The notes under the pieces: generated by a model
The model's input: the letters and a program-made list of their open reading frames with translations, nothing else
Told to the model about the DNA's origin: nothing
Databases searched by the model: none
Shown: positions 14,888-37,167 of the stretch, piece by piece
Numbering within the stretch: position 1 is the stretch's first letter
Layout of the letters: the number at the start of each line of letters is the position of its first letter
Source: Candidatus Bathyarchaeota archaeon
GTDB lineage: Archaea > Thermoproteota > Bathyarchaeia > Bathyarchaeales > Bathyarchaeaceae
Reading direction: 5' to 3'
Length of the DNA: 45,263 nucleotides
Assembly (NCBI GenBank): GCA_050115935.1
Contig: JASFPO010000002.1
Span: 1-45,263, forward strand
Translations under genes and position numbers: made by a program

Positions 14888-14890
14888 TTT

Positions 14891-15919: not shown

Positions 15920-15935
15920 CTAAGACACCATCCTG

Positions 15936-16886: not shown

Positions 16887-16892
16887 ACGACA

Positions 16893-17321: not shown

Positions 17322-17325
17322 TTTG

Positions 17326-20300: not shown

Positions 20301-20355
20301 CAGCAATCCCACCACCGATTACCATCACAGCCCCGACTTTGTCCACCATGATCAT
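17326..20355 (-). CDS. hdrA: Double (tandem-fused) HdrA-like flavoprotein, copy 1 (1009 aa)
   Basis: The N-half has VIGGGIAGVQASLDLA, DKTFPTNDCAMCILAPK, an inserted ferredoxin (CTGCGVCAQKCP, CLGCGICEEVC) and CVGSRD..CSSVCCMY. The C-half has the N-domain CHCGINIGG..SCSPRTHEP, VIGGGLAGMTAALALS, CVGSRN..CSRMCCGE and a C-terminal 2x[4Fe-4S] (CTACELCMLVC, CKGCGACAATC). Confidence 0.9.
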   Translation of the reverse strand: MIMVDKVGAVMVIGGGIAGVQASLDLADSDFKVYLVDSSPSIGGTMAQLDKTFPTNDCAMCILAPKLVAAGRHQNINLMTNTVIRRVEGEAGRFKVTLTRKSRRVDEDKCTGCGVCAQKCPVEALDVFNEGLSKGGAIYVKYPQAVPLVFIINKEKCLGCGICEEVCKAGAIRYDQEDGELQLDVGVIVLATGFDEFDPSLKTEYGYGRYLNVVSSIEFERLLSASGPHAGMVLRPSDGDIPRRIAFIQCVGSRDVTCGSGYCSSVCCMYATKEAVIAKEHMSQIEPTIFAMDVRAYGKDFDKYIERAKDEYGVRFVRCRVSSVEEVPETRNLRIKYESEDGKLVQEEFDLVVLTLGIKPAGGNKELAEKLGVRLDEYDFFKTQSFTPTRTSKPGILVCGAASSPKDIPETVTQASAASATVGELLSSVRGTLVKKKEYPKELDVRGQPPRIGVFVCHCGINIGGVVSVPSVVEYARTLPNVVHACDNLYTCSSDTQEIIKNRIKEYGLNRVIVASCSPRTHEPLFQETIKEAGLNRYLFEMTNIRDQCSWVHMHDHEAATEKAKDLVRMAVAKARVIEPLERLSLNVTSRGLVIGGGLAGMTAALALSEQGFEVDLVEKNKELGGFLRKIHHTLDNDDTQQYLRSMIEKVYSNELIKVFLNAKVDNVSGYVGNFKTTVTLNSGNEVKRELEHGAIIVATGGEEYRPKEYLYGKDSRVLTQLELENRIATDSHGNFGNVVMVQCVGSRNDEHPYCSRMCCGEAVKNALKIREKDPQANVYVLYRDIRTYGLMEEQYRRAREAGVVFIRYEEENKPKVTKTISQGKEALHVSVLEPTIQEDIIIDTDLLVLSAAVVPPKENEILAKMLKVPVNEDGFFLEAHAKLRPVDFATEGIFVCGMAHSPKSIEESISQAKAAVSRACTLLTRDTIEAEGIIATVNPNRCTACELCMLVCAYNAIEIEETRRGKVAKVNSALCKGCGACAATCRCSAIDIKGFTDMQMSLIINALR

Positions 20356-21119
20356 CTCTCCAAGGCAGTATAGAATGGGGTCATGCCCTCTACTCTGTCG
20401 AGGCTAATTAGGCCTCTGCGTCTCAGAATCACCACGTGGCCCAGTACCTGCTTGTTGTCTATCCCTAAGCGTTTGGACAAATGCTTGATTGACATTGGCT
20501 TGTTCTCTAGTAAGAGATAAATTCGGTTACGTATGTACTCGGACGAGAGAGCCTCATCCATCTTCTCATCGAATTCTTCCTGCGATATCTCCTCGCCATA
20601 GACGTTTCCTTCCTCGATCATTTTCCTCTCTCTGGCCACGAGTGCTCGTAGCCGAAAATCTTCCACTGCCTTCTTTGCTGCTTGTATACCTTCCAGTTTC
20701 TCTGAATCCATTTTTTCTTTCCGCAGCGGAGAGGGGCCAAGAACCTTGATGTGGTTTGTAAAATCTCGGATGATCTCTGCAAATCGAGCTCCCTCCGATG
20801 CAGAGACCCATTCAAGGCGTAGGCGCTCTGTCAAGCCTAATGGAGCTATTATTTTTTTGAGCATCTTGAACTTCCGTTCAGCTTCATAGTTCCCGGTCAT
20901 GTAGTGGCAGTCACCAGGATGGCAGCCCATGACAATAACGCCGTCCAGACCACTGCTCAGTGCCTCCAGTATCATGACGGGGTCAATTCTTCCAGTACAC
21001 ATTACTCTGATAACCCTCAGGTTAGAGGGATATTGAATTCGGCTAACGCCGGCTAGGTCAGCGCCAGCATAGGAGCACCAGTTGCAGAGGAAACCTAATA
21101 TTTTTGGCTCGAACTTCAT
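20352..21119 (-). CDS. mvhD: MvhD-like subunit with ~115-aa C-terminal extension ending in a winged-helix-like domain (255 aa)
   Basis: The N-terminal 140 aa are MvhD (FLCNWCSYAGADLAG, GCHPGDCHY). The C-terminus MSIKHLSKRLGIDNKQVLGHVVILRRRGLISLDRVEGMTPFY looks like helix-turn-helix plus wing. ATGA overlaps occur on both sides. Confidence 0.8.
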   Translation of the reverse strand: MKFEPKILGFLCNWCSYAGADLAGVSRIQYPSNLRVIRVMCTGRIDPVMILEALSSGLDGVIVMGCHPGDCHYMTGNYEAERKFKMLKKIIAPLGLTERLRLEWVSASEGARFAEIIRDFTNHIKVLGPSPLRKEKMDSEKLEGIQAAKKAVEDFRLRALVARERKMIEEGNVYGEEISQEEFDEKMDEALSSEYIRNRIYLLLENKPMSIKHLSKRLGIDNKQVLGHVVILRRRGLISLDRVEGMTPFYTALER

Positions 21120-24100
21120 GCGGTTGCCCTCTCCAGCAAGGCTCTTGCCTGGGAAGTGATCTGTTCATCGGTGAAGTGAGGTATGGTGACAGCCCTTTCA
21201 GGGCAACTTGCTGCGCAGAGACCACAACCTTTGCAGAGCACCACTGTTACCTCAGCCACACCCACTTCGTTCTTTCCTATTGCACCGTAGGGACAAAGTT
21301 TCACGCAAGTCCCACATCCCGTGCATGTCTTTTCATCGATTGAAGCAACGATTCCTTCGGCCTCAATCTTTCTCTTTGAAAGGATTGTACACGCCCTCGA
21401 AACAGCTGCATACGCTTGGGAAATGCTTTCTTCAATGGATTTCGGCGCGTGAGCCATTCCGCAGACGAAAACTCCATCAGTGGTGAAATCGACGGGACGC
21501 AGTTTCGCGTGCGCTTCCAAGAAGAAGCCATTCTCGTTTAAGGGAACCTTTAGCATCTTGGCTAAGACGCTGTTTTCCTCGGGCGGGACGACAGCGGCAC
21601 TCAACACCACCAGATCAGCGTCGATTGAAACCTGTTCGCCAATTGTGGGTTCATAGACTGAGACGCTTAGGATGTCTCTTCCATCTTGTGATTTGCTCCT
21701 AATGACCTCAGGTTTCTTGTCATCATCGTAACGAATGAAGACTACTCCGAGTTCTCTCGCTTTTCCATAGTAGGTTTCAATCAATCCATAAGTTCTCATG
21801 TCTCGATATAGTACGAATACCTCCGCGTTAGGATTTTTCTCCTTAATCTTCAAGGCATTTTTAACCGCCTCACCACAACACACACGACTGCAATATGGAC
21901 GGACGTTATCCCTGGAACCAACACACTGAATCATTACTACAGAATCTAGTTCATTGGCACCACCACCCGTCGAGAGACGATCCTCCAACTCTGACTGAGT
22001 GATTATCTTGGGATCCACCCCGTACTGATACTCGTTTGGTTTGTGCTCTTCACTTCCTGTAGCCACGACTACGATTCCATGATCTAAATCCTTCATTTCA
22101 GAGCCCTGAGTTATGACGGTTCTGAAGTTCCCCACATAACCAGAGATTTCCTCAACTTTGGCTCCTAAGAAAGTGTGAATCAGATGGTTTCCTTGAACCT
22201 TACCAATCAATCTTTTCAAGTACTCTTGTGGGTCTTCTCCTTCTAGCGTATAGTGAATGTTACGAAGAAACCCGCCTAACTCTTGTTCTTTCTCAGTCAA
22301 GTAAACCTCAAAACCTTGCTCAGCCAAAGCCAGAGCCGCAGTCATCCCGGACAAGCCTCCGCCAATCACAAGTCCCTTAGGAACAACATCCAGAAGTATT
22401 CTATCCAACGGCTCAAGTCTTCCAGCTTTAGCCACTGCCATCCTAACTAAGTCCTTAGCCTTCTCCGTTGCGGCTTCATGTTCGAGCATATGTACCCAGG
22501 AACATTGGTCACGGATGTTGGCCATTTCAAAAAGATACACGTTTAACCCAACTTCCCTTAGTGTTTCTTGGAACAGTGGTTCATGGGTCCGAGGAGTGCA
22601 TGAGGCCACAACAACTCTGTTGAGGTTATGCTCTTTGATTCGATTCTTGATTATCTCCTGAGTGTCTGAAGAACAGGTATAGAGATTGTCGCAGGCGTGG
22701 ACGACATTTGGAAGGGTTCGAGCGTACTCCACAACGCTCGGGACATCGACAACTCCTCCGATGTTAATACCACAGTGACAAACGAAAACCCCAATTCTCG
22801 GCGGCTGACCTCCAACATCCAGCTCTTCTGCATAAACCTTCTTCCCTACCAAGGTTCCTCGAACAGAAGACAGCAACTCACCCACACTAGCAGAAGCCGC
22901 GCTAGCCTGAGTAACAGTCTCAGGAATATCCTTGGGCGAGGAGAACATACCGCAAACAAAGACCCCGGGCCTAGAGGTTCTCATAGGGTGAAAGGTTTGG
23001 GTTTTGCAGAACCCATGCTCGTTCAGCTCAACCCCGAGGCTTTTAGCCAATTTCTTTGTGTTCTCAGATGGAGCAAAACCGACCGAAAGGACGACTAGGT
23101 CAAACTCTTCCTCATGCAGCCTTCCTTCTTCGGTCTCATATCTTATCTTTAGGTTTTTTGTCTCAGGAATCTCCTCTAATCTGGATACCCTGCACCTGAC
23201 AAATCTGACTCCATACTCATTCTTAGCCCTCTCAATGTACTTGTCAAAATCCTTCCCATAAGCACGCAAGTCTATATAAAAGATCGCGGGTTCAATCTGA
23301 CTCATATGTTCTCGGGCTATAACCGCTTCCTTTGTGGCATACATACAGCAAACCGAAGAGCAGTAACCGTTTCCACATGTGACATCTCTGGAACCAACGC
23401 ACTGTATGAAAGCAATTTTTGTGGGGATATCTCCGTCTGAGGGTCTCTGCACACGCCCGAAGAAAGGCCCAGAAGCGCTCAAGATGCGCTCAAACTCGAT
23501 GCTCGTAACCACATTAGGATATCGTCCCCAACCGTACGCGCTCTTCAGCTTCGCGTTGAACTCCTTAATACCAGGGGCAAGAACGACAGCGCCAACGTTC
23601 AGCTTAACCTTCTTCTCTTGATCGGAATAGTTTATGGCATCGGCAAGACAAACGTTCTTGCAGAGTCCACAGCCTACACACTTTTCTCTGTCGATTAGGT
23701 ACACCAAGGGGACGGCTTGCGGGTAGTTAATGTGAATCGCTGTTCTCTCACTCAAGCTTTTGTTGAAGGCATCTACGGCGTCAACTGGACAGAATTTGGC
23801 GCAAAGCCCGCACCCTGTACACTTCTCGAGGTCAACGTATCTTGGTCGTTTCCTCACCGAGACATTGAAGTTGCCAGCCTCTCCAGAAATCTCGGTGACT
23901 TCAGAGCACGTCAAGACTTCAACGTTCATGTGTCTTCCGCACTCTACGAGCTTTGGGGACAGAATGCACATGGAGCAGTCGTTGGTTGGAAAGGTTTTGT
24001 CCAGCTGCGCCATGATCCCTCCTATAGCGGAGGAGTTATCCACCACGTAAACTTTGAACCCAGACTCAGCTAGGTCGAGCGCAGCCTGTATCCCTCCAAT

Positions 24101-24175
24101 TCCTCCACCTACAACCATCACCGAACCCACTTTGCTTACTTCAGAAACCGGGTTTCCTGAGTTCATGTTTGACAT
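21116..24175 (-). CDS. hdrA: Double (tandem-fused) HdrA-like flavoprotein, copy 2 (1019 aa)
   Basis: Same two-module architecture and motif set as copy 1 (DKTFPTNDCSMCILSPK; CHCGINIGG; C-terminal CTGCGTCVKLC / CKGCGLCAASC). Confidence 0.9.
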   Translation of the reverse strand: MSNMNSGNPVSEVSKVGSVMVVGGGIGGIQAALDLAESGFKVYVVDNSSAIGGIMAQLDKTFPTNDCSMCILSPKLVECGRHMNVEVLTCSEVTEISGEAGNFNVSVRKRPRYVDLEKCTGCGLCAKFCPVDAVDAFNKSLSERTAIHINYPQAVPLVYLIDREKCVGCGLCKNVCLADAINYSDQEKKVKLNVGAVVLAPGIKEFNAKLKSAYGWGRYPNVVTSIEFERILSASGPFFGRVQRPSDGDIPTKIAFIQCVGSRDVTCGNGYCSSVCCMYATKEAVIAREHMSQIEPAIFYIDLRAYGKDFDKYIERAKNEYGVRFVRCRVSRLEEIPETKNLKIRYETEEGRLHEEEFDLVVLSVGFAPSENTKKLAKSLGVELNEHGFCKTQTFHPMRTSRPGVFVCGMFSSPKDIPETVTQASAASASVGELLSSVRGTLVGKKVYAEELDVGGQPPRIGVFVCHCGINIGGVVDVPSVVEYARTLPNVVHACDNLYTCSSDTQEIIKNRIKEHNLNRVVVASCTPRTHEPLFQETLREVGLNVYLFEMANIRDQCSWVHMLEHEAATEKAKDLVRMAVAKAGRLEPLDRILLDVVPKGLVIGGGLSGMTAALALAEQGFEVYLTEKEQELGGFLRNIHYTLEGEDPQEYLKRLIGKVQGNHLIHTFLGAKVEEISGYVGNFRTVITQGSEMKDLDHGIVVVATGSEEHKPNEYQYGVDPKIITQSELEDRLSTGGGANELDSVVMIQCVGSRDNVRPYCSRVCCGEAVKNALKIKEKNPNAEVFVLYRDMRTYGLIETYYGKARELGVVFIRYDDDKKPEVIRSKSQDGRDILSVSVYEPTIGEQVSIDADLVVLSAAVVPPEENSVLAKMLKVPLNENGFFLEAHAKLRPVDFTTDGVFVCGMAHAPKSIEESISQAYAAVSRACTILSKRKIEAEGIVASIDEKTCTGCGTCVKLCPYGAIGKNEVGVAEVTVVLCKGCGLCAASCPERAVTIPHFTDEQITSQARALLERATA

Positions 24176-24199
24176 CCTCCATGCGGTTTACTTTGCCTC

Positions 24200-24982
24200 T
24201 CACTCTCCAACTCTTCGATACTTAGGGCTGTTTCCTTCAATTCCGACGACGGAGATTAATCCATCGCGCTCGAGAGAGACTATGCTTTTCAGCACTTCCC
24301 TTGGTGAAGTTTCCACTCGCTGGGCTATCTCTTTGACAGAGAGAGAGTCTTCTTTCAAGGAGAGAAGAACTCTTCTTCTTGCAAACTCCTTTTCGACGGT
24401 TTGTAGCGTCAGTTGGTCGAATTCTTCTTGTGACACTTTCTCTCCGAAGACATTTTTGTCCTCTATGAGTTCCCTTTCTCTGCCCACCAGCCATCTAATC
24501 CTCTGCTGGGCTAGAGCCTCCTTGGCTGCGACCAAACGCGCTCTCAACTGTTGTTGCGCCAAGTTTGTTTCTTTACCAAGTGGCCCCAGCTTTCTTATCT
24601 TTACGGTGAAATCTTTGACCAAGGTTGCAAAGCGTTCACCCTCAGCCGCGGACACCCAATCGACCAATAATCGCTTGGGAGATAACCCTATGTTTTTCAG
24701 GACGTTTTTCGTCGTCTTCATCCTTCTTTCCGTGTAATAGTTTCCAGTTATATAGTGACAGTCGCCGAGGTGGCAACCCAGAACCATGACACCATCTAGT
24801 CCTTGGATGAAGGCTTCGAGAACGATGGTTGGATCAACCCTTGCTGAACACATCACCCTGATGGTTCTGATGTTTGGCGGATATTGAAAGCGGCTGACTC
24901 CAGCTAGGTCTGCGCCAGCGTAGGAACACCAGTTGCAGAGGAATCCAAGGATGTCTGGTCCAAAACTCTCTTCTAAGGTCAA
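24200..24982 (-). CDS. mvhD: MvhD-like subunit with C-terminal winged-helix-like extension (260 aa)
   Basis: The MvhD core (FLCNWCSYAGADLAG, GCHLGDCHY) is followed by an extension ending LSVKEIAQRVETSPREVLKSIVSLERDGLISVVGIEGNSPKY. It is a paralog of 20352..21119. Confidence 0.8.
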   Translation of the reverse strand: MTLEESFGPDILGFLCNWCSYAGADLAGVSRFQYPPNIRTIRVMCSARVDPTIVLEAFIQGLDGVMVLGCHLGDCHYITGNYYTERRMKTTKNVLKNIGLSPKRLLVDWVSAAEGERFATLVKDFTVKIRKLGPLGKETNLAQQQLRARLVAAKEALAQQRIRWLVGRERELIEDKNVFGEKVSQEEFDQLTLQTVEKEFARRRVLLSLKEDSLSVKEIAQRVETSPREVLKSIVSLERDGLISVVGIEGNSPKYRRVGE

Positions 24983-26691
24983 GATTTCACCTCAGCTAGG
25001 GCAGTCACTTGGGCGAGGAGCTGCTCGTCAGTGAAGTGCTGCATAGTGATCGCCATCTGGGGACACCCTGCTCCACACGCTCCGCACCCCTTGCAGGAGG
25101 CGGCTATCACTTTGGCCTTCATTCCCTTGTCGGTTTCTTCGAGTCGTATTGCCTTGTAGGGACAGATTAGCTCGCATAGACTGCAGCCCGAGCATTTGCC
25201 CTTGTCAACCATGGCAGTTAATGCTTCAGTGTGTAGTTTCTTAGCAGACATTGGGATAGATGCTCTAGAAGCCGCACCATAAGCTTGTGAAATGCTCTCT
25301 CCAACATCAGCGGGCCAGTGGGCACAGCCGCATACATAGACGCCATCTGTGGCGAAGTCAACGGGTCTCAGCTTCACATGGGCTTCAAGGAAGAATCCAA
25401 TTGGTCCGAGTGGCACCTTGAGCTTCCGCGATAGTTCCTTCGCGTCCTCATGTTGAATCAGAGGCGTTGACAACACAACCAGATCGGCCTCGATTCTGAC
25501 TTGCTCACCAATAAGCGAATGATAGACACTGACATCTAGTTTTCCATTTCTTCCTTGAGAAATTTCTGGGGGTTTTTCCGGAAGATGTCTAATGAATTTC
25601 ACGTCTTTCTTTTGAACTTCTCTGTGATATTTTTCATATTCCTTTCCATAGGTTTGGAGGTCTCGATAGAGGACATATATATCGGCATCTGGATGAAGGT
25701 CTTTAAGAAGTCTTGCATTTTTTAGCGCAGTCATGCAACATATTCTTGAGCAGTCACTTCTGCCCTCTTTCCTAGATCCCACGCATTGGATCATGACAAC
25801 TTTCCCTAGATTCTGTAATCGTCTATTCTTGAGAAGTTGCTCAAGCTGAAGCTGAGTTATTACGTTGTCATATTTCTTGTACCCATACATGCCAACAGGC
25901 TCAAAATTGACAGCTCCTGTGGCAACAATGATCGTTCCTATTCCGAGGTCTATGGTCTTCCCGCTTCTTCTCTGGATTGTAGCTTCAAAGTTTCCGATGA
26001 AGCCATCGACTTTCTTTACAACAGATGATGTTAAAATTTCTATATTTTCATTTGACCCGACCGCACTGACAAGTTGATTTACAACTTCGGATGCATCTCG
26101 CATGGTTGGATACAACTTGTTTAGGCTTCTGAGCATTCCACCCATCTCAGGTTCCTTTTCGACAATGTAGACGTTAAAACCCTGATTGGCAAGGCAGAGG
26201 GCAGCCGTCATGCCAGCGACTCCACCTCCGATAACTAAGGCAGAAGGAGTTACGTCTATTTCCGTCTCTTCTTGTGGTTGAAGTAGACTAGCCTTCGCCA
26301 CTGCCATTCTCACTAGATCCTTCGCCTTCTCTGTGGCGGTTTCTGGGTCTTGTATGTGTACCCAAGAACACTGGTCACGGATGTTGGCCATTTCAAAAAG
26401 ATACTTATTCAGACCGGCTTCTGTGCATGTAGCTCTAAAAAGCGGCTCGTGGGTTCGAGGTGTGCATGAAGCTACAACGACTCTATTTAGATTATATTTC
26501 TGTATTCCCTCCTTGATCTTGCTCAGTCCTTCTGAAGAGCACGTATAGAGATTTTCCTCTGCGTAGACTACGTTTGGCAGTTCTTTGGCGTATTCGACGA
26601 CTTCTGGCACTTCAATCACGCCGCCTATGTTGATGCCACATTGGCAAATGAAAACACCAATTTTCGGCGTCTCGTCATTGCTGTGCTCCAT
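24979..26691 (-). CDS. hdrA: HdrA-like C-module as a separate ORF (570 aa; equivalent to the C-half of the double HdrA)
   Basis: It starts MEHSNDETPKIGVFICQCGINIGG and has VIGGGVAGMTAALCLA, CVGSRKEGRSDCSRICCM and a C-terminal CSGCSLCELIC / CKGCGACGAGC. Its ATG 26689-26691 directly abuts the TAG of the upstream ORF in the same frame. Confidence 0.85.
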   Translation of the reverse strand: MEHSNDETPKIGVFICQCGINIGGVIEVPEVVEYAKELPNVVYAEENLYTCSSEGLSKIKEGIQKYNLNRVVVASCTPRTHEPLFRATCTEAGLNKYLFEMANIRDQCSWVHIQDPETATEKAKDLVRMAVAKASLLQPQEETEIDVTPSALVIGGGVAGMTAALCLANQGFNVYIVEKEPEMGGMLRSLNKLYPTMRDASEVVNQLVSAVGSNENIEILTSSVVKKVDGFIGNFEATIQRRSGKTIDLGIGTIIVATGAVNFEPVGMYGYKKYDNVITQLQLEQLLKNRRLQNLGKVVMIQCVGSRKEGRSDCSRICCMTALKNARLLKDLHPDADIYVLYRDLQTYGKEYEKYHREVQKKDVKFIRHLPEKPPEISQGRNGKLDVSVYHSLIGEQVRIEADLVVLSTPLIQHEDAKELSRKLKVPLGPIGFFLEAHVKLRPVDFATDGVYVCGCAHWPADVGESISQAYGAASRASIPMSAKKLHTEALTAMVDKGKCSGCSLCELICPYKAIRLEETDKGMKAKVIAASCKGCGACGAGCPQMAITMQHFTDEQLLAQVTALAEVKS

Positions 26692-28023
26692 CTATCGAAC
26701 CTCCTCGTGTGCTACCAGCGCTACTACTTCTGCAGCTCTCGCGGCTGCTCCACTGGCTTGTGCAACAGATTCTGGAATATCTTTAGGACCATGGCAACAT
26801 CCGCAGACGAAAACTCCTTGGATATTCGTGTCGACAGGCATCATCACGGAGTCTTTGGCTTCGAAGAAGCCGTATTCATCAAGTTTTACTCCGAGCTTTT
26901 CGCTTAGCTCCTTGTTAGACTCCTTGGGGACAAAAGCCGGGCAAAGGACCACCATATCCACTTTTAGCTCTCTCACTTCTCTGGTTATGGTATGTTCGCA
27001 AGAGATTACAAGATCCTTTGTTCTCGGATCCTCTGAAATCTCGCTAGGACGTCCTCTAATATATTGTATGCCCCAATTCTCTCTTGCTCTGTCGATGAAG
27101 CTTTGGAAACCCTTCCCAGAGGCTCTAAGGTCTATGTAGAATATGAAAACCTCAGAATCGGATTCATGTTCCTTTATTAATATCGCTTCTTTCGTGGCGT
27201 ACATGCAACATGCGCTAGAGCAGTACGAAACACCTCTTCCCAAGCCCCTTGAACCCACACACTGTATGAAAGCAACCTTGTTAGGGACTTTTCCGTCAGA
27301 TGGCCTTGTTACGTGACCTCCGGTTGGACCGGATGCGTTGGCTAGACGCTCAAGCTCCAGAGAAGTTATAACATTTTTATATCGCTTGTAGCCATATTCA
27401 TTAATTGCAGATGGATTAAGTAGATTGAAGCCCGTAGCGACGATGATAGCGGATACTTCTAGTGTGATCTCTTCAGGCTCTTGTTCAAAGTCCACAGCCT
27501 CGGCTTGACACAACTTTTCACATATTCTGCATACTCCACGTGTGAAGTATAGACAGTTTTCCTTATCGATTGTCGCAATGCGAGGCACGGCTTGCAGGAA
27601 CGGCATATAGATGGCCTGCCTCATTCCAAGGAGCATATCAAATTCGTTAGGCAATCTAACTGGACATTTCTCTGTACACGTGCCACAACCTGTGCATTTA
27701 GCCTCATCAACGAATCGAGGCTTTCTCATGACCTTTACGTTGAAAAGTCCCGCCGATCCGCTGACTTCCTCTATTTTGGAATAAGCCAGCAATGTGATAT
27801 TTGGATGGCGAAAGCACTCAATCATCTTTGGGGCAAGTATGCAAATTGAGCAGTCCAGTGTTGGAAATGTTTTGTCTAGTTGCGCCATTCTTCCGCCTAT
27901 GCTTGGGGTCTCCTCCACGAGGTATACCTTAAATCCACGGTTAGCTAGATCCAAGGATGCTTGTATCCCGGCAACACCACCACCAATCACCAAGATTGAA
28001 GAGCTTTCCTTCAAGAGAATCAC
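26692..28023 (-). CDS. hdrA: HdrA-like N-module as a separate ORF (443 aa; equivalent to the N-half of the double HdrA)
   Basis: It has VIGGGVAGIQASLDLA, DKTFPTLDCSICILAPK, an inserted ferredoxin CTGCGTCTEKCP and CVGSRGLGRGVSYCSSACCMY. It ends ...AHEEVR at TAG 26692-26694. Confidence 0.85.
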   Translation of the reverse strand: MILLKESSSILVIGGGVAGIQASLDLANRGFKVYLVEETPSIGGRMAQLDKTFPTLDCSICILAPKMIECFRHPNITLLAYSKIEEVSGSAGLFNVKVMRKPRFVDEAKCTGCGTCTEKCPVRLPNEFDMLLGMRQAIYMPFLQAVPRIATIDKENCLYFTRGVCRICEKLCQAEAVDFEQEPEEITLEVSAIIVATGFNLLNPSAINEYGYKRYKNVITSLELERLANASGPTGGHVTRPSDGKVPNKVAFIQCVGSRGLGRGVSYCSSACCMYATKEAILIKEHESDSEVFIFYIDLRASGKGFQSFIDRARENWGIQYIRGRPSEISEDPRTKDLVISCEHTITREVRELKVDMVVLCPAFVPKESNKELSEKLGVKLDEYGFFEAKDSVMMPVDTNIQGVFVCGCCHGPKDIPESVAQASGAAARAAEVVALVAHEEVR

Positions 28024-29507
28024 ACTTCACCTCTTCTTAAGTAACGATGGATAGATGCCGCGGCTCTCTTACCAGCAGCAATTGCCTCAATCACGCTTGC
28101 CGGCCCTGACACCACATCCCCACCAGCAAACACTCCGGGCATGCTTGTTTCCAGAGTGAGAGGATCTACGGCGATGGTATTCCATTCAGTGACTTCGACC
28201 ATCTCAGGGAGAAAGAAGATGTCTGGTAATTCACCGATGGCCAAGAGTATTGTGTCCAATTCCATGGTGAACTTCGAGCCCTTGATCGGTATTGGTCGTC
28301 TTCTACCACTCTCGTCAGGAGATCCTAATCTCATCCGAATACACTCTACAGCAGTAACTTGTTTATCCTTTTCTAAGATTTTCCTAGGCATCAACAGAAA
28401 ATGAATCTTTACGCCATTCCTTTCTGCTTCTTCTACCTCCAAAGGACTTGCAGGCATCTCTTCTCTAGATCTTCTATAGAGAATGTTAACCTCTTTGGCC
28501 CCGAGCTGGAGGGCGGTTCTAGCTACATCCATGGCAGTGTTGCCACCACCAACAACTCCGACTCTTTCTCCAAGTCTAGGTTGTCTCTGCAGGTTGACTT
28601 GACGCAGCAAATCAATGGCGTGTAGTATACCTCCCAAATCTTCACCTTCAACACGAAGCTTTCTGCTTTTGTGAGCTCCGGTTGCGACGAAAATCGCTTT
28701 ATATTCTTCCTTTTTTAGAAGGTCTCTGAACGACAGATCCTTACCAATGGCTGTGTTGGTTCTAATCTCTACTCCAAGATTTTCTATATACTTTATTTCC
28801 GCATCTACGACATCCTTGGGCAGCCGATATGTGGGTATTCCCACTCTTAACATCCCTCCAGGCTCAGACAGCGCCTCAAAAACTGTAACTGGAAATCCCA
28901 TCCTGATCAATTCCCAAGCTGTCGTAAGTCCAGCTGGGCCAGAACCGACTATAGCTATTCTTTCCTTACGCGTCTTAGGCAGAGGGGTTACTTCTCTTTT
29001 TCCATAGTCCGCAAGAGAGCGTTCAAGAAAATTTGAAATGTAGTTGTCAAGCTTACTGCGTTTGGGTTTTTCCTCACAGGGTCGTAGGGAAAGCCAACTG
29101 TAGACTAGAGGGAATGGAAATTGCTCTCCAAGAATTGCAAGAATTTCTTCAAGCTTGCTCAACACGTCTGGCAAATAGCCTCGTTCAACAGTCATCTCTC
29201 TTAATAGCAAGAAGATTTCCGGTAGTTTCAGCCCGTGGGGACATCTTTTGTAGCATCGATAGCACATTGCGCATATCCAGAGTCCTGTTTCGGACAGAAC
29301 GTTCTCCAAGCCAAGAGAGAGCTTGTTGAAAAAGACTCTTGGATTATAGAGCCCTGGAAAAACTCTTGCAACTGGGCAGGCTGCGGTGCAGGTTCCGCAT
29401 TCATAGCAATGTGCCAACATCTCAGCGTCGGGTGATCTTTTCGAAAGCTCCCGTGAGATTGCAGCTTGAGAGCTTCCCGAGGTGAACTGCTCTATCCTGT
29501 TGCTCAT
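28020..29507 (-). CDS. HdrC-like 2x[4Fe-4S] domain fused to a GltD/NfnB-type NAD(P)H-dependent flavin oxidoreductase
   Basis: 495 aa. The N-terminus CYECGTCTAACPV...CAMCYRCYKRCP parallels HdrC at 33686..34216 (CYQCGTCNVGCPV...CSACYTCRERCP). Dinucleotide motifs IAIVGSGPAGL and VGVVGGGNTAMD follow, as in glutamate synthase small-subunit-like proteins. Confidence 0.75.
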   Translation of the reverse strand: MSNRIEQFTSGSSQAAISRELSKRSPDAEMLAHCYECGTCTAACPVARVFPGLYNPRVFFNKLSLGLENVLSETGLWICAMCYRCYKRCPHGLKLPEIFLLLREMTVERGYLPDVLSKLEEILAILGEQFPFPLVYSWLSLRPCEEKPKRSKLDNYISNFLERSLADYGKREVTPLPKTRKERIAIVGSGPAGLTTAWELIRMGFPVTVFEALSEPGGMLRVGIPTYRLPKDVVDAEIKYIENLGVEIRTNTAIGKDLSFRDLLKKEEYKAIFVATGAHKSRKLRVEGEDLGGILHAIDLLRQVNLQRQPRLGERVGVVGGGNTAMDVARTALQLGAKEVNILYRRSREEMPASPLEVEEAERNGVKIHFLLMPRKILEKDKQVTAVECIRMRLGSPDESGRRRPIPIKGSKFTMELDTILLAIGELPDIFFLPEMVEVTEWNTIAVDPLTLETSMPGVFAGGDVVSGPASVIEAIAAGKRAAASIHRYLRRGEV

Positions 29508-29602
29508 CGATCTGGCGATCCTCCATGATGCAGCTTTGTTCCACTGTCTCCAAGGTCAAGAGCGATTCGAATGCCTGTTACTACACCGATACCCAGAATC
29601 AT
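29504..29602 (-). pseudogene. 32-codon mini-ORF resembling the N-terminal FAD-binding segment of HdrA (relic or micro-ORF)
   Basis: MILGIGVVTGIRIALDLGDSGTKLHHGGSPDR compares with [26 protein letters not shown] in the HdrA copies. Its ATG lies 1 nt after the FrhB-like stop, and its TGA overlaps the ATG of the HdrC::GltD gene. Confidence 0.45.
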
Positions 29603-29603
29603 C

Positions 29604-30785
29604 TTAGGATTTTCCCTTGAAGCTCTCCTCTCCAGCCAATTCCGAAAGCCTCTTCTCAGCCCTCGTTCTCTTCCTTCTGGCGAAGGAAACGATCTTGGCC
29701 AACATCCTAGTCTTCTCCAGTTCACTCTCCTTCGCATCTTCGAAGGTTCTCTCCTGAATGTAACCCTTACGAAGACTCTCATCGTAAATTGTCCTGCCTA
29801 CTTTTGTCCTTATAAGAGTTGAAGTATATCCGTCAGGTGAACCAAGTCCTCCGACCGAAATGTCGGCGTACTCGTTGCTGAAGTCTTGGCATGCAAAGCA
29901 TGCTGGGCGAGCGACTTCGTGTATCTCTTCCAATGGGACATGAATAGTCACACCTTTAGTGAGTGTGATTGTGAAGTCATCTTTGATGTTCAATTTGACG
30001 ATATCCTCTAGATTGATGTCGAGTTTCTTCTCCAGTCTTTCTCTTGCTACGTCATCAAACGAGAAATTTTCTATGCAAAATAGCCCTATCGTGTATTTTA
30101 TGAGGTGAGCTGGGAGAATTCCGAGGCATTGCATCTTTCGAATCGCATTGATCTGGCAGGGAGTTCCAACCACGGCTATATTCTGCTTATATCGTCTCTC
30201 TAGGTTCTTTACTGTGGATAGAATAGGAGTGTAAGTGGTATATTTTCCTCCTAACTCCTCTAGATGTTGGGATCCTGAGAATGTAGAGCCTGATGCTTCT
30301 ATGAGCTCCTCATGGGTTGAGGCTATCATGGGCTTTCTCGCGAATCGCCCTGTCTTTTTTGACACTAGAGCACCATTTATCAGGTTGCTATCCAGTAAGT
30401 ATAGGAGGAGAGAGGTAACTACGCCTCCGTCTGTGCAAATTTTCTTCACCTCTTTATTTGTCGTCTGAGCGGAGGTTATCCTATGATAGTCGCCTATAGG
30501 AGGCTTCCAGCCAAACTTCTCTTGGAGCTCCAAGTTTAGCTTATCTGTTTGAGGGCATATGAGGTAGCATATTCCGCATTTCAGGCAATTTTCCTCGTTG
30601 ATGTATTCCGGCACCTCATTCTTACCCATCTTGAGGGCGTTGAGTTCTCCCGCTGAGCAGAAGGAGACGCAGCCACCACACTTGCCACATATTCCCTTCT
30701 CGACTACTTCCATGGCTAAATCTTTGAATGTCTTAGTCTCCTCCATAGTAACCAAACCTAGAACGTTAGTATAATTTTGAACCAT
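29604..30785 (-). CDS. FrhB/FdhB-family (coenzyme F420 hydrogenase/dehydrogenase beta-like) flavo-iron-sulfur protein
   Basis: 393 aa. An N-terminal ferredoxin (CGKCGGCVSFC, CLKCGICYLICP) is followed by FrhB-like segments DGGVVTSLLLYLLD and VGTPCQINAIRKM. It is the first gene of the long minus-strand operon. Confidence 0.7.
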   Translation of the reverse strand: MVQNYTNVLGLVTMEETKTFKDLAMEVVEKGICGKCGGCVSFCSAGELNALKMGKNEVPEYINEENCLKCGICYLICPQTDKLNLELQEKFGWKPPIGDYHRITSAQTTNKEVKKICTDGGVVTSLLLYLLDSNLINGALVSKKTGRFARKPMIASTHEELIEASGSTFSGSQHLEELGGKYTTYTPILSTVKNLERRYKQNIAVVGTPCQINAIRKMQCLGILPAHLIKYTIGLFCIENFSFDDVARERLEKKLDINLEDIVKLNIKDDFTITLTKGVTIHVPLEEIHEVARPACFACQDFSNEYADISVGGLGSPDGYTSTLIRTKVGRTIYDESLRKGYIQERTFEDAKESELEKTRMLAKIVSFARRKRTRAEKRLSELAGEESFKGKS

Positions 30786-30889
30786 TATTTAGGAATTTCT
30801 CATGGGCAAATTACAGAACAACAGATATAAAGAAGCGATCTAATGGTATAGTTTCTCGTGAAAAAAGCAAGTCTAGGAGAGATTTCAGC

Positions 30890-32242
30890 TTGCCAAAGAA
30901 AATAGTAATTATCGGCGCAAACGCAGCTGGTGTTCACGCCGCAAACGCAGCTCGCAAAACCGATTCCAAGGTTGAAATTACTTTAATAGACAAAGAGAAA
31001 ATCCCAGCCTACTCGCGTTGCGGTATACCCTATGTCCTAGCTGGTGAGATACCAAGCTTTGAAGATCTCATGGCCTTTCCTCCAGCCCATTATAGAATGA
31101 TGAAGTTTGATCTACGCCTTGAAACCACGGCTAGGTCCATCAATCCAGAAGATAAAATTGTTCTAGTTGAAGACAAGAAAGGAAATTTCGAAGCACTAAA
31201 ATACGACTCGTTGATCCTCGCAACTGGTGCTGATCCGTTTATTATACCACTCAAGGGTCGCAACCTTCCAGGAGTGTTTGCGATGAGGTCGGTGGATGAC
31301 GGAAAAAGAATTCAAGAAGCGCTAAAGATGGCCAAGAGTGCTGCTGTTATCGGGGCTGGATTTATTGGTCTAGAAACGGCACATGCTATCGCGATGAATA
31401 AAATCAAAACTACGATCATTGAAGTTGTGCCCTACATTCTTCCTGCATTATTCGACGAAGATATGGCCGATTATACACAGAAGAAAATAGAAGGACATGG
31501 CGTAAACGTGGTAGTAGGCAAACGGGTAGATGCAATCCTAGGCAAAGAAAAGGTTGAAGGCGTAAGCGTAGCCGGAGAGAAAATAGAAGCAGATATTGTT
31601 GTCATGGCTGCAGGCATCAGACCAAGAACAGACTTGATAAGGGGACTCGGAGTAGAATTAGGTGTAACCCGAGCCATCAGAGTGAACCCAAGAATGGAGA
31701 CCACCATTTCCAGCATATTCGCGGCCGGAGACTGTGTAGAATCTCAAAGCTCGATCACAGGGTTGCCATGTCTTTATCAACTTGGAACCAACGCGGTTAG
31801 GCAGGGAACAACCGCTGGAGTAAATGCGGCAGGAGGATACGCTGCCAATCCTCGCGTGATTTGCAGTGCAGTTTCGAAAATCTTTGATTTTGAACTTGGT
31901 GCTGTAGGTCTCTCAGAGTATCAAGCTGCCAAGGTTGGCTTCCAAACACTTAGTGCAAGCATCACGGGAAAAACTCGGGCACCATATTTCCCGGGAGGAA
32001 AAGAAGTCAAAGTAAAAGTCATTGCTGAACCTGTTTTGGGAAGAATTATGGGAGCCCAGATAGTTGGCGGGGAAGACGTAGCGCAGAGGATTAACATGCT
32101 CTCTGTTGCGATACAAAAAGAAATGACGGCGTTAGAGCTTTCTGCGGCTGACACTAGTTATGCTCCTCCCGTAGCTGAGACTGTAGAGCCCGTAGCGACA
32201 GCCGCGGAGATCGTTGCCAAAAAAATACGTAGGCGTAGGTAG
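30890..32242 (+). CDS. Single-cysteine pyridine-nucleotide-disulfide oxidoreductase of the CoA-disulfide reductase / NAD(P)H sulfur oxidoreductase / NADH oxidase group
   Basis: 450 aa. It has KIVIIGANAAG, a redox Cys in AYSRCGIPYVLAGE (compare the CGIPYV motif of Pyrococcus-type CoADR/NSR), a second Rossmann AAVIGAGFIGLE and AAGDC. The TTG start follows AGGAGAG. Confidence 0.7.
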   Translation: MPKKIVIIGANAAGVHAANAARKTDSKVEITLIDKEKIPAYSRCGIPYVLAGEIPSFEDLMAFPPAHYRMMKFDLRLETTARSINPEDKIVLVEDKKGNFEALKYDSLILATGADPFIIPLKGRNLPGVFAMRSVDDGKRIQEALKMAKSAAVIGAGFIGLETAHAIAMNKIKTTIIEVVPYILPALFDEDMADYTQKKIEGHGVNVVVGKRVDAILGKEKVEGVSVAGEKIEADIVVMAAGIRPRTDLIRGLGVELGVTRAIRVNPRMETTISSIFAAGDCVESQSSITGLPCLYQLGTNAVRQGTTAGVNAAGGYAANPRVICSAVSKIFDFELGAVGLSEYQAAKVGFQTLSASITGKTRAPYFPGGKEVKVKVIAEPVLGRIMGAQIVGGEDVAQRINMLSVAIQKEMTALELSAADTSYAPPVAETVEPVATAAEIVAKKIRRRR

Positions 32243-32326
32243 GAACCTTCATTAGGACGCTGAACTCCAAGATTCAAGGCTAATCAAACCTAATGAAAGG
32301 CTGACAATCCCTAGAAGGATAAATGG

Positions 32327-32797
32327 ATGAAGGTTGGCATATACGACATTCCTGAGAATTACTATTACATTAAAGAACACGAGTGGATCTTAATAGAAAA
32401 CACTGACACAGCAAGAATTGGAATCACAGACTATGCTCAGAAAGCGTTGAGGGAGATTACTTACTTCTACACAGGAGAAAAGAATACTGAAGTCAAACGG
32501 ATGGAGACAATCTGCAAGATAGAGTCAGTAAAATGCGTTGCTGAGATATTAAGTCCCTTCTCAGGCATTGTTCTCAGATTTAATAACGGACTATTCGACA
32601 CTCCAAGTATCATAAACAGTGATCCTTATGGCAAAGGTTGGATAGCAATCATCCGCCCTTCAAACCTTGAAAAAGAGCAGGAAAAACTATTAAAACCAGA
32701 AATTTACGCAGAGCACATAAAAGCACTTACCAGAGTAGATGAAACTCTATTAATTCACAGATGGAAAAAGGGAATAGAGGAAAAAACGGGCGAATAA
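32327..32797 (+). CDS. GcvH-like lipoyl-carrier protein (copy 2, divergent)
   Basis: 156 aa. It has GITDYAQKAL and the lipoyl-lysine motif IESVKCVAEILSPFSG (Lys codon 32531-32533), plus a C-terminal extension relative to copy 1. Confidence 0.7.
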   Translation: MKVGIYDIPENYYYIKEHEWILIENTDTARIGITDYAQKALREITYFYTGEKNTEVKRMETICKIESVKCVAEILSPFSGIVLRFNNGLFDTPSIINSDPYGKGWIAIIRPSNLEKEQEKLLKPEIYAEHIKALTRVDETLLIHRWKKGIEEKTGE

Positions 32798-32808
32798 AGG
32801 GCTCTAAT

Positions 32809-33684
32809 CTAGACACCAAGCTTACTCAACAAGTCAGACGTCTTCACACGGTTCATGTCCAACCCCAACTCCTTTGGCGGCATTCCTAGAGCAAGCCCAA
32901 GGACTTGTGGGTAAAATAGTACTGGCAGATTATAAGCCGCATTAAATCTTCTCTCTATCACCCTCTGATTTCTGTCGTACATAGAACCACACAAGGGGCA
33001 CATCAGAACCATCGCGTCGGCGCCCATAGCATGGATGTGATCAAGTTTTCTCTGAGCCATTGTCAACGCGATCTTATCGTCAACGTCCAGAATCACTCCG
33101 CCACAACACTGCGTCTTATCCTCATATTCTACAGTTTCTGCGCCCAGTGCAGAGATAAGTTCATCTAGAGTTCTAGGAAACTCCGGGTTCTCGAATCTGT
33201 CAAAAACATCTGATGGCTTAAAGTAATGGCATCCATAGTGGGAGGCTACCTTGAGCCCTTCCAAGCTGTTTTTAACTTGGCTCTTAATCTTTTCAGGGCC
33301 AATATCTTCGTATAGAACACGCACAAAATGTCTAACTTTGAGCTTTCCTTTGTAAGCCCGACCTATTTTTCGCAGCTTCTCGTTGACCTTATGCCTTAGT
33401 TCATCATCATGCGTCAGCTCTTTGGAGGCTTCCGCTAGCGTGGAGGCGCAACCTGTGCAGATAGTGCATATATCTAAGCCCGTCTCTTCAGCAACACCTA
33501 GATCCCTAGCAGCTAGAAGCAAAGCTGTCTCATGGTCTACGGATCTTATGGGGAAGCCACAACAGGCAAAATCCTCAATGTCTATGAGTTCCATTCCGAG
33601 TTTTTTTGCGACATTCCTCGCTGAAAGCTCGAACTGCTTAGACATTACAGGTGAAAGGCACCCTGGGAAAAAGGCGTACTTCAC
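32809..33684 (-). CDS. hdrB: Heterodisulfide reductase subunit B (two CCG domains)
   Basis: 291 aa. It starts MKYAFFPGC... and has the CCG motifs FACCGFP and TQCCGG. Confidence 0.85.
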   Translation of the reverse strand: MKYAFFPGCLSPVMSKQFELSARNVAKKLGMELIDIEDFACCGFPIRSVDHETALLLAARDLGVAEETGLDICTICTGCASTLAEASKELTHDDELRHKVNEKLRKIGRAYKGKLKVRHFVRVLYEDIGPEKIKSQVKNSLEGLKVASHYGCHYFKPSDVFDRFENPEFPRTLDELISALGAETVEYEDKTQCCGGVILDVDDKIALTMAQRKLDHIHAMGADAMVLMCPLCGSMYDRNQRVIERRFNAAYNLPVLFYPQVLGLALGMPPKELGLDMNRVKTSDLLSKLGV

Positions 33685-33685
33685 T

Positions 33686-34216
33686 TTACTCTCCTCTTCC
33701 AGCGCTTGAGAGCTTGTTTAAGCCCGTTAGCTTAAAGATTTCCTGAACTTCCTCGTTTCTGGGTTGAATTCGCGGTAACCCAAGTTCTTTCCTTTTAGTG
33801 TTATCAAACTGGCTCACGGGGAACAGCTTGCCTTGGGTTCCTACGATCTCCACTCGCTTGGCAAAAGAGCTGTGAACATAACCTTCTTTTACTGCCAGAT
33901 TTTTCAGAGCATTCATCACATCAGCTATTCTAACATCCTGAGGACAACGTTCCCGACAAGTGTAACATGCAGAACACAGCCATATGAATTCATTTGAAAG
34001 GACCCTTTCTCTCATACCCAGCACGGTCATTCGTATGATCTTTCTGGGATTGTATTTCTCCTCTATCTCTCTAACCGGGCATCCGACGTTACATGTTCCA
34101 CATTGATAGCATCTCTTTATGTTCTGTCCTCCGGGAACCTTTGAAACTTCGTCTTTGAACTTAGGGTCGAGTTTAGTGACCACCAAAATAGGTCTCTCCA
34201 CATCTAATTTGACCAA
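33686..34216 (-). CDS. hdrC: Heterodisulfide reductase subunit C (2x[4Fe-4S])
   Basis: 176 aa with CYQCGTCNVGCP and CSACYTCRERCP. A 1-nt gap separates it from hdrB. Confidence 0.85.
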   Translation of the reverse strand: MVKLDVERPILVVTKLDPKFKDEVSKVPGGQNIKRCYQCGTCNVGCPVREIEEKYNPRKIIRMTVLGMRERVLSNEFIWLCSACYTCRERCPQDVRIADVMNALKNLAVKEGYVHSSFAKRVEIVGTQGKLFPVSQFDNTKRKELGLPRIQPRNEEVQEIFKLTGLNKLSSAGRGE

Positions 34217-34465
34217 CCAACTTCAGTAGTTGAATAGTCAGTTCGAGTCCCTCATTCTGAGAATAATATAAGACAGTCTGACTTGAATTTAAGTATTTTT
34301 TAGCGCGCGACAACATGGAAATCTCATTTATAGCCACAAGAATGACCCAGATGAAACTTCGACAAACGTGATTCCCTCTTTTCCCCTAAACCGGGCGTTC
34401 AGTCGGAAAATTAATATGGACAGTGTTGTTAAAGTATGCAAAACTGAGAAAAATGGTGATTTGGA

Positions 34466-35494: not shown

Positions 35495-35568
35495 CCCCAA
35501 CACATCAAAAGCTTCAACTAATCTGCGAACCCGTACGTGTATTTCCTTTGCGATAAGGAGGTTGGAGA

Positions 35569-37142: not shown

Positions 37143-37167
37143 AAACAGATGTCAGTCTAAGTAAGTA

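Follow-up and report, generated by a model that had tools for sequence, protein, structure and literature searches.

The DNA analyzed here is a 45,263-nucleotide stretch of contig JASFPO010000002.1 (hereafter the window), in which two adjacent plus-strand genes lie among genes for heterodisulfide reductase (Hdr)-type subunits. The first (30890..32242, plus strand) encodes flavoprotein-A, a 450-residue protein with a TTG start that belongs with the single-Cys group-3 flavoprotein disulfide reductases, the family of coenzyme A disulfide reductase (CoADR), NADH oxidase (NOX), and Npsr. The second (32327..32797, plus strand) encodes GcvH2, a 156-residue lipoyl-carrier paralog of the H-protein family (Pfam GCV_H, 120 bits). 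An earlier note on this DNA had described such a pair, splitting hdrCB from an hdrA operon, and this was borne out: both open reading frames are present, with minus-strand hdrBC genes on one side and a minus-strand operon (14048-30785) on the other. The window is archaeal; it contains a 23S rRNA gene and an RNase P RNA gene, and its protein homologs are named Bathyarchaeota or Bathyarchaeia. The source organism is a Bathyarchaeia archaeon from wetland or sediment.

Flavoprotein-A matched the Pfam models Pyr_redox_2 (203 bits), Pyr_redox (65.6 bits), and Pyr_redox_dim (57.7 bits). The protein contains AYSRCGIPYVLAGE, with the catalytic residue Cys44 within the motif SRCGIPYV. The single redox Cys that the earlier note had assigned corresponds to this residue. 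In alignments it fell on the catalytic Cys of structurally solved NOX, CoADR, and persulfide reductase enzymes, and it was conserved in 100% of 47 flavoprotein homologs. The only Cys residues of flavoprotein-A are 44, 282, 294, and 325, and the protein therefore has no CxxxxC pair. Cys294 and Cys325 are conserved and specific to the flavoprotein-A class, which lacks the C-terminal Cys common in class B, the resident flavoproteins of related Bathyarchaeia. The closest solved homologs were A. fulgidus NoxA-3 (6pfz, 275.6 bits), which has been described as a persulfide reductase, 6ruz (266.7 bits), 4fx9, and 8a56; 2bc0 and 2cdu are also among them.

Like the CoADR, NOX, and persulfide reductase enzymes (4fx9, 6ruz, 6pfz, 8a56), flavoprotein-A combines their fold and length with a single redox Cys in xCG(I/L)PY, FAD and NAD(P)H binding motifs, and a dimerization domain. 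Unlike them, it falls far below every NCBIfam equivalog cut-off, and its gene always comes with a gcvH partner, a pairing not described for the family's enzymes. It reached neither the CoADR equivalogs (TIGR03385, 342.1 vs a cut-off of 578.8; NF007123, 308.9 vs 458) nor NF046103 (247.5 vs a cut-off of 600 bits), a model of the Streptococcus-type NOX equivalog that says nothing on wider NOX family membership. The lipoamide dehydrogenase equivalog TIGR01350 was likewise not reached (137.5 vs 408.8 bits), with only residues 88-439 matched. Flavoprotein-A may work in an E3-like manner, but outside the dihydrolipoyl dehydrogenase family. No rhodanese domain is fused to it (450 residues, compared with 551-588 for Npsr and CoADR-RHD).

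GcvH2 contains IESVKCVAEILSPFSG, with the motif IESVKC. The lipoyl-Lys motif with a Cys beside the Lys, claimed previously, was confirmed as ESVKC, in which the predicted lipoyl-Lys69 is followed by Cys70 (K+1); on its other side lies Cys63 (K-6). Among the best 120 database clusters for GcvH2, which share 73% identity or more and have a length of about 156 residues, Lys69, Glu66 (K-3), and Gly80 (K+11) were invariant, and Cys occupied K-6 in 120/120 and K+1 in 113/120 clusters. Glu at -3 and Gly at +11 reportedly matter for lipoylation of the bovine H-protein. All other sampled GcvH classes have Gly at K-6 and Ala at K+1. In parallel, flavoprotein-A acquired two conserved Cys residues. Additionally, GcvH2 has a conserved C-terminal tail (ending in ETLLIHRWKKG, approximately residues 135-156) that is absent from GcvH1 and other GcvH proteins. 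An AlphaFold2 model displayed the GcvH fold with Lys69 in a hairpin turn and the tail as a low-confidence helix. GcvH2 passed the PRK01202 cut-off (130.7 vs 117) and scored 114.5 against a cut-off of 115.85 in the GcvH equivalog TIGR00527.

In a neighbor-joining tree, GcvH2 formed a separate long-branch clade. Its identity to the other GcvH classes was 41-42% throughout, and those nearest to it in the tree were standalone or gcvP-linked Bathyarchaeia GcvH proteins. Owing to this equidistance and to these neighbors, we rejected the idea that GcvH2 is a recent duplicate of GcvH1. The phylogenetic placement that the earlier note had called for thus separated GcvH2 from the other GcvH classes, while LbpA, the lipoate-binding protein of sulfur oxidizers, was compared by its published Cys positions only.

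The resident canonical-type H-protein, GcvH1, is encoded at 13373..13798 (plus strand; Pfam GCV_H, 123 bits) and contains VESVKAVSDLIAPLSG. Its gene faces flxA (14048-14887, minus strand), the last gene of the operon, in the convergent arrangement noted before. The true start is probably TTG 13382 rather than GTG 13373, because the orthologs are 136-138 residues long. GcvH1 passed TIGR00527 (126.9 vs 115.85) and was 62-94% identical to class-B GcvH proteins. By sequence comparison, it is the ortholog of the gcvH partner in a gcvH→flavoprotein pair that is widespread in Bathyarchaeia.

A comparison with the closed genome of a relative, CP070786.1 (L167), placed the pair within a larger unit. 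The two DNAs are collinear at the nucleotide level on both flanks, corresponding to window positions 11174-13783 (AMMECR1, QPRT, DUF4152, gcvH1) and 34466-39056 (gap, pgk, 23S rRNA), and the proteins encoded there share 74-91% identity. In between, CP070786.1 carries one 1.35-kb class-B flavoprotein gene, whereas blastn/tblastn collinearity left 20.7 kb of the window (13784..34465) without a counterpart: the flx-hdrA-mvhD-frhB operon, flavoprotein-A, gcvH2, and hdrBC. Since the collinear relative has only the class-B gene, the pair belongs to this Hdr cassette. Flavoprotein-A was rejected as an ortholog of the resident class-B flavoprotein, with which it shares 53% identity, compared with 74-91% for the flanking genes. 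It forms a clade of its own, apart from the class-B flavoproteins, with 81-89% identity inside the cassette lineage vs 48-59% to the resident class. The gene comparison indicates that the Hdr genes brought flavoprotein-A and gcvH2 with them and that these took the place of the resident flavoprotein, gcvH1 remaining at the border. The earlier picture of a pair inserted in an Hdr cluster has to be revised: the cassette, including the pair, replaced the flavoprotein in an older gcvH1-flavoprotein-gap-pgk locus.

The cassette layout, frhB (minus), flavoprotein-A→gcvH2 (plus), hdrB-hdrC (minus), was kept in 8/9 distinct loci of relatives, with GcvH2 identities of 73-100%, and frhB adjoins flavoprotein-A in every cassette locus. 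Such recurrence is more than chance, and it settles in the affirmative the conservation of linkage in related genomes, a test set before this analysis. The divergent intergenic region between frhB and flavoprotein-A (30786..30889, 104 bp) is a candidate common regulatory region for the two genes. L007 (CP070826.1, a closed genome of 1.18 Mb; 7424-12638) retains a short frhB (333 residues), flavoprotein-A, and gcvH2; EMG1 and creatininase genes occupy the expected hdrBC site and no hdrA lies upstream, so the cassette is decayed or partial. In L165 (CP070636.1, 10630-18018), gcvH1 lies beside flxA/B/C and an 85-residue MvhD stub, followed by unrelated genes that include one for a 391-residue Fer4+CCG (HdrD-like) protein; this region resembles a rearranged cassette border.

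The minus-strand operon begins with frhB (29604..30785), encoding a 393-residue FrhB/FpoF-like iron-sulfur flavoprotein (Pfam FrhB_FdhB_N/C and Fer4). The next gene (28020..29507, minus strand; 495 residues) fuses an HdrC-like N-terminus to a GltD/NfnB-like NAD(P)H flavoprotein and is absent from L001, L004, and L168. It is followed by a split double HdrA (24979..28023, minus strand; N-half 26692-28023, C-half 24979-26691, by Pfam), which is 51% identical over its full length to the fused HdrA-HdrA. Two tandem units (17326..24982, minus strand, by Pfam) each combine a fused HdrA-HdrA (1009 and 1019 residues) with an upstream MvhD (255 and 260 residues), the two copies being 68% identical; the window has one HdrA-HdrA and MvhD-HTH unit more than L001, L004, and L168. 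These two MvhD (FlpD) proteins (20352-21119 and 24200-24982) carry a C-terminal winged-helix DNA-binding-like domain (PF0610-like_N/HTH_20), an unusual fusion for an electron-transfer subunit. The operon closes with a FlxABCD-like module (14048..17321, minus strand, by Pfam) composed of a third MvhD, MvhD/FlxD (16893-17321), FlxC (15936-16886), FlxB (14891-15919), and the NAD-binding FlxA (14048-14887). Across from it, the HdrB-like subunit (32809..33684, minus strand; 291 residues, Pfam CCG x2) is convergent with gcvH2, with 11 bp between the stops, and the HdrC-like ferredoxin subunit (33686..34216, minus strand; 176 residues) matches Fer4_8/Fer4_17. Both resemble methanogen HdrBC, in the two CCG domains of HdrB and the 2x[4Fe-4S] character of HdrC, but score under the methanogen equivalog cut-offs (HdrB, TIGR03288, 298 vs 345; HdrC, TIGR03290, 125.5 vs 160 bits).

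Transcript fragments nearly identical to frhB, flavoprotein-A, hdrB, hdrC, hdrA, gap, and pgk were present in wetland metatranscriptomes. One RNA contig (32697-33216) covers hdrB and runs into the 3' end of gcvH2. The body of gcvH2 had no coverage in these data, which are too thin to judge co-transcription of flavoprotein-A and gcvH2.

In its domains, the operon resembles Desulfovibrio FlxABCD-HdrABC and methanogen MvhADG-HdrABC, with FlxA/B/C, MvhD, HdrA, HdrB (two CCG), and HdrC. The likeness to Flx-Hdr is a domain-level match, in which flxA (NAD-binding and FeS), flxB, flxC, and flxD (MvhD) stand beside hdrA at 14048-17321; as to Mvh-Hdr, relatives carry MvhG/MvhA-HdrA/MvhD-HdrC-HdrB. From its sequence, this Hdr/Flx/Mvh content is the expected chassis of flavin-based bifurcation. 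The difference lies on the thiol side. The known partners are DsrC (proposed) or the heterodisulfide of coenzymes M and B (CoM-S-S-CoB), whereas a predicted lipoyl protein and its own NAD(P)H flavoprotein are encoded in the cassette here.

We scanned species-representative genomes and metagenome contigs and analyzed the loci by tblastn/blastp and Pfam. Bathyarchaeia gcvH genes occurred in three contexts. In the first, gcvT→gcvH or gcvH beside gcvPA/PB, the products are true glycine-cleavage H-proteins. In the second, found in about 44 loci almost all labeled Bathyarchaeia or Bathyarchaeota, a GcvH1-type gene is directly followed by a gene for a CoADR-like class-B flavoprotein (48-59% identical to that of the window), usually followed by gap-pgk. 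The third is the cassette context of the window. A bacterial-type GAPDH (Gp_dh_N/C) and PGK are also encoded after the pair in the window (34466-36795), as in approximately 30 related loci of many Bathyarchaeia lineages.

The class-B pair adjoins Hdr genes in arrangements of its own. In L089, L093, and L095, it opens a one-strand, operon-like series, gcvH→flavoprotein→mvhG→mvhA→hdrA::mvhD→hdrC→hdrB→gap→pgk, and the same mvh-hdr block lies downstream of the cassette hdrBC in L005, L006, L168, and L169. L100 has hdrC→hdrB→gcvH→flavoprotein next to a group-4 hydrogenase block that includes a second HdrB, and L103 has gcvH→flavoprotein→hdrA. The co-occurrence that the earlier note had asked about therefore extends beyond the cassette to three other Hdr architectures (mvhGA-hdrADCB, hdrCB, and hdrA). 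Hdr genes were within 8 kb in 10/48 flavoprotein-linked GcvH loci vs 3/84 other GcvH loci (Fisher p=0.002, for loci that are not phylogenetically independent). This recurrent Hdr linkage, like the gene identities, the structure of the cassette, and its conservation, is a direct observation. The cassette pair is a specialized version of an older, Bathyarchaeia-wide gcvH-flavoprotein module, which probably couples NAD(P)H to lipoyl proteins in general and counts Hdr among its clients.

These loci bear on whether the synteny could be incidental, the region upstream of gap-pgk being a rearrangement hotspot and the flavoprotein and GcvH proteins having no interaction with Hdr. Several unrelated insertions do lie between the pair and gap-pgk (L166, L024, L065), and at neither cassette border did we find direct or inverted repeats of at least 10 bp or any other mark of targeted integration. 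We nevertheless give this account scarcely any credence. It would leave aside that flavoprotein-A and GcvH2 are a co-diverged, distinct pair found only with the cassette, that hdrBC is linked to them in all but one of the nine loci, that the operon-like linkage involves differing Hdr types, and that GcvH is embedded in Hdr clusters of two other archaeal classes.

Another possible role of the pair is thiol protection. Here the flavoprotein would be an NAD(P)H oxidase or disulfide reductase and the lipoyl protein a dithiol relay to peroxiredoxin-type or repair enzymes, comparable to Lpd-DlaT-AhpD-AhpC of Mycobacterium, while co-location with the oxygen-sensitive iron-sulfur enzymes of Hdr and with GAPDH would reflect co-regulation, with Hdr being no user of the substrate. 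The NADH oxidases among the closest solved homologs (6ruz at 266.7 bits, 2bc0, 2cdu), the mostly Hdr-free location of the pair beside gap-pgk, and the L007 pair without hdrBC are all compatible with this role. We consider it unlikely, however. No peroxiredoxin, AhpD, thioredoxin, or rubrerythrin gene lies beside the pair in any annotated locus, and protection leaves unexplained the specialized GcvH2 and flavoprotein-A in the Hdr cassette, the same-direction order hdrC-hdrB-gcvH-flavoprotein, and an lplA gene in an hdrCB unit.

That lplA gene was found in L170 (GCA_975967205.1), the most divergent cassette locus, where it (5679-6464, minus strand) heads an lplA-hdrC-hdrB unit beside gcvH2 and encodes an LplA catalytic domain (BPL_LplA_LipB). 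L086 and L088 likewise have LplA homologs, at a distance of 5-9 kb from their class-B pair. A tblastn search of the window with Bathyarchaeia LplA gave no match. Bathyarchaeia genomes carry LplA, LipS1, and LipS2 (gene-level list, PMC10332631 supplement), so that, with the L170 unit, the lipoylation machinery that the earlier note had wanted searched for is present in the lineage.

The partners of glycine cleavage were sought in the same way. Searches by tblastn with Bathyarchaeia GcvT, GcvPA, and GcvPB gave 0 matches in the window, in agreement with the earlier statement that the 45 kb contain no aminomethyltransferase or glycine decarboxylase genes. Nor did gcvT or gcvP occur within the 10-kb flanks of any flavoprotein-linked locus (0/48), whereas other Bathyarchaeia gcvH genes abut gcvT or gcvPAB. 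Among the GcvT matches listed in a database search, all at least 64% identical, none was on a pair-bearing closed genome; Bathyarchaeia GcvTs differ by up to 50%.

The gene contexts make it highly unlikely that the pair serves ordinary glycine cleavage or a reductive glycine route, with GcvH1 or GcvH2 as the H-protein, the flavoprotein as a non-canonical L-protein, gcvT/gcvP elsewhere in the genome, and an incidental Hdr neighborhood. An H-protein beside a flavoprotein disulfide reductase is the expected look of an H/L pair, and the likeness to glycine cleavage H/L and Lpd relays includes the GcvH fold, the conserved lipoyl-Lys, Glu at -3, Gly at +11, and the adjoining pyridine-nucleotide disulfide oxidoreductase. 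Furthermore, GcvH1 passes the GcvH equivalog and GcvH2 passes PRK01202, and gcvT and gcvP loci did appear in our scans. The system is, however, reported from only two Bathyarchaeia orders (PMC10321748), yet the pair is widespread. Where gcvT or gcvP is present, it adjoins other GcvH types; GcvH2 is non-canonical at two otherwise invariant positions and moved with an Hdr cassette; and flavoprotein-A differs from Lpd in lacking the CxxxxC disulfide.

A known link between lipoate and Hdr-like enzymes is the sHdr system of sulfur oxidizers, whose gene order is hdrC1B1A-hyp-hdrC2B2. In Hyphomicrobium, Thioalkalivibrio, and Sulfolobales, an Hdr-like complex is tied genetically to LbpA, a lipoate-binding protein of the GcvH family (Cao et al. 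2018, PMC6067878). LbpA is required for sHdr, and in archaea the cluster also encodes a dihydrolipoamide dehydrogenase (PMC6067878). The present locus shares with these systems a flavoprotein gene in the cluster and a lipoate-binding-type gene next to hdr (gcvH2 is 11 bp from hdrB). A lipoate ligase gene, which they have in or near the cluster, is seen here in the relative L170. It differs in having Flx, MvhD, double HdrA, FrhB, and a single hdrBC, without the sHdr order and without TusA or DsrE. By its published description, LbpA has two conserved Cys residues, one near each terminus (Cao 2018, PMC6067878), whereas K-6 and K+1 are the only conserved Cys positions of GcvH2. The flavoprotein here is of the single-Cys CoADR/NOX type rather than a CxxxxC dihydrolipoamide dehydrogenase, and the host is an anaerobic Bathyarchaeia archaeon and no sulfur oxidizer. 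Because the cluster type, the Cys pattern, and the sulfur-transferase genes all fail, the system lies outside sHdr-LbpA, and the likeness is a functional analogy, not membership. No LbpA sequence was found in the PDB, and no NCBIfam model matched; Aquificaceae loci tried as LbpA candidates turned out to be gcvPA-linked GcvH and were rejected.

A role in sulfur or persulfide metabolism would build on this analogy. As has been suggested for LbpA, the lipoyl or Cys thiols of GcvH2 would carry sulfane sulfur, the flavoprotein would be an NSR/Npsr-type or CoA-persulfide reductase, and the Hdr cassette would serve S0/polysulfide reduction or sulfane oxidation. The top PDB matches (6pfz at 275.6 bits, described as a persulfide reductase, and 8a56, a CoA-persulfide reductase) point in this direction, as do the extra Cys residues around the lipoyl-Lys and the sHdr-LbpA precedent. 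We regard such a role as decidedly unlikely, given that no rhodanese is fused to flavoprotein-A, that neither the cassette nor the loci of relatives contain TusA, DsrE, or rhodanese genes, that the Cys pattern is unlike LbpA, and that the HdrA genes are MvhD-associated and not in sHdr order.

For Culexarchaeia, GcvH has been suggested to carry the disulfide on which HdrB acts (Kohtz et al. 2022, PMC9723716). The Ehe/Ehd [NiFe]-hydrogenase-HdrB clusters of Culexarchaeia and Methanomethylicia (PMC9723716; L084) also embed a gcvH gene among Hdr genes. L084, from a Methanomethylicia metagenome-assembled genome (3885-16844), encodes HdrA::MvhD-HdrC-HdrB, SdhB-like and SdhA-like (flavoprotein) subunits, GcvH, a ferredoxin, HdrB', and group-4 [NiFe] hydrogenase/antiporter subunits; in Bathyarchaeia, L100 has a similar hydrogenase-HdrB' block beside hdrCB-gcvH-flavoprotein. 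Unlike the present locus, the adjoining flavoprotein in these clusters is SdhA/TfrA-like and not CoADR-like, there is no Flx/FrhB/multi-HdrA cassette, and the GcvH, which shares 45% identity with GcvH1, is ordinary in type and has no Cys pair.

The conserved linkage, its recurrence with other Hdr types, lplA in an hdrCB unit, and the absence of gcvT/gcvP indicated a functional tie between the pair and Hdr, which we regard as well supported by comparative genomics. We put a probability of roughly 0.55 on a more specific reading, namely that flavoprotein-A and GcvH2 form a dedicated protein-thiol redox couple, that this couple is part of the Flx/FrhB/HdrA/MvhD/HdrBC cassette and moved along with it, and that it acts as a lipoyl-protein dithiol/disulfide shuttle between NAD(P)H and HdrB.

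For this couple we infer from sequence that lipoylation occurs, which substrates are used, and which way the electrons flow, as follows. GcvH2 would be lipoylated on Lys69. Its lipoyl dithiol/disulfide would be the thiol substrate at the CCG iron-sulfur site of HdrB, in the place of CoM-S-S-CoB. Cys63 and Cys70 could assist, for example through a mixed disulfide with lipoyl at HdrB, and these extra cysteines may tune the potential. Flavoprotein-A would work E3-like by the single-Cys route of CoADR, in which a Cys44-S-S-lipoyl mixed disulfide is resolved via FAD and NAD(P)H; this chemistry would be the same as that of CoADR with CoA disulfide. In this way, flavoprotein-A would equilibrate lipoyl-GcvH2 with NAD(P)(H), and the pair would join the NAD(P)H pool to bifurcating or confurcating flavin-based HdrA modules, whose other partners would be ferredoxin, Flx (NADH), and FrhB (F420 or similar).

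The reported E0' of lipoamide, approximately -290 mV (PMC6067878), would make it a workable acceptor for H2-driven (Mvh) bifurcation, or a workable partner in confurcation of ferredoxin and dithiol towards NAD(P)+ or H2. The same value is too low for a high-potential acceptor of NADH- or F420H2-driven bifurcation, and the cassette of the window has no hydrogenase. Together with these energetic points, several others weigh against the proposed shuttle. The TIGR00527 score of GcvH2 is so near the cut-off that GcvH2 may be an ordinary H-protein, and the residue preceding its lipoyl-Lys varies across the clusters (V/R/M/L/T/I/A/Q), which is unusual for an ESVK lipoylation motif. The retention of flavoprotein-A and gcvH2 in L007 implies that the pair can function without neighboring Hdr. 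Of the class-B pairs in the scans, approximately 37/42 lacked Hdr genes within 8-10 kb; the pair is therefore more than an accessory of Hdr. The Hdr-linked architectures may, moreover, share one ancestral arrangement, in which case the Fisher test overstates the significance.

With regard to the substrate of HdrB, the earlier note had offered a lipoyl or a CoA-type disulfide or persulfide. The tie of the pair to Hdr on which that proposal leaned held up in comparative genomics. The CoA-disulfide/persulfide alternative lacks specific support, because flavoprotein-A is far below the CoADR equivalog cut-offs. A wider and more tentative proposal, to which we give somewhat less than even odds, is that the bifurcating HdrABC-type complexes of Bathyarchaeia might use, as their physiological "heterodisulfide", a lipoylated H-protein paralog aided by its two flanking cysteines, and that the same might extend to other archaea that are not methanogens. 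A single-Cys CoADR-like flavoprotein would recycle this paralog against NAD(P)+, and the whole would be transferable as a cassette.

Several features of the window lie apart from this system. The 23S rRNA gene is complete (37167-40235) and no 16S gene adjoins it, the rRNA genes being unlinked; the RNase P RNA gene (40439-40743) is 200 bp downstream of it, and the order gap-pgk-23S is common to the window and CP070786.1. An MttB-superfamily methyltransferase open reading frame (5189-6694, minus strand) is uninterrupted, without an in-frame TAG, and includes an Rfam match to the pyrrolysine insertion element PYLIS_3 (48 bits, 5581-5687). The match begins near codon 336, which is the pyrrolysine position of true MttB. 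The gene may be a descendant without pyrrolysine that retains RNA-like sequence, or the match may reflect mere coding conservation. Positions 8000-10190 contain only overlapping open reading frames on both strands, none with a Pfam match.

HdrABC, Mvh-Hdr, and Flx-Hdr sets are widespread in non-methanogenic archaea, including Bathyarchaeia and Asgard archaea. Loh et al. (PMC7886697) called the heterodisulfide of Hdr unclear in Bathyarchaeia (Bathy-6), and the disulfide of the Hdr sets was stated to be unknown in Asgard archaea (PMC11291895) and Culexarchaeia (PMC9723716). Our literature search found no paper describing the gcvH-CoADR-like pair, its linkage to Hdr in Bathyarchaeia, or the cassette. 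A protein-bound lipoyl disulfide is a concrete candidate for the Hdr substrate in archaea that make no methane, and the locus and its relatives offer a clonable candidate system of three small soluble proteins, GcvH2, flavoprotein-A, and LplA, that travel with Hdr. If the proposal is true, Mvh-Hdr and Flx/FrhB-Hdr would be H2-, NADH-, or F420-linked ferredoxin:NAD(P) oxidoreductases with a protein-bound cofactor replacing CoM-S-S-CoB, and the CoADR/NOX flavoproteins would gain a new class of substrate, lipoyl-protein. Lipoate would then be in use with Hdr not only in aerobic sulfur oxidizers but also in anaerobic energy conservation, and metabolic models would change for one of the most abundant archaeal groups in sediments.

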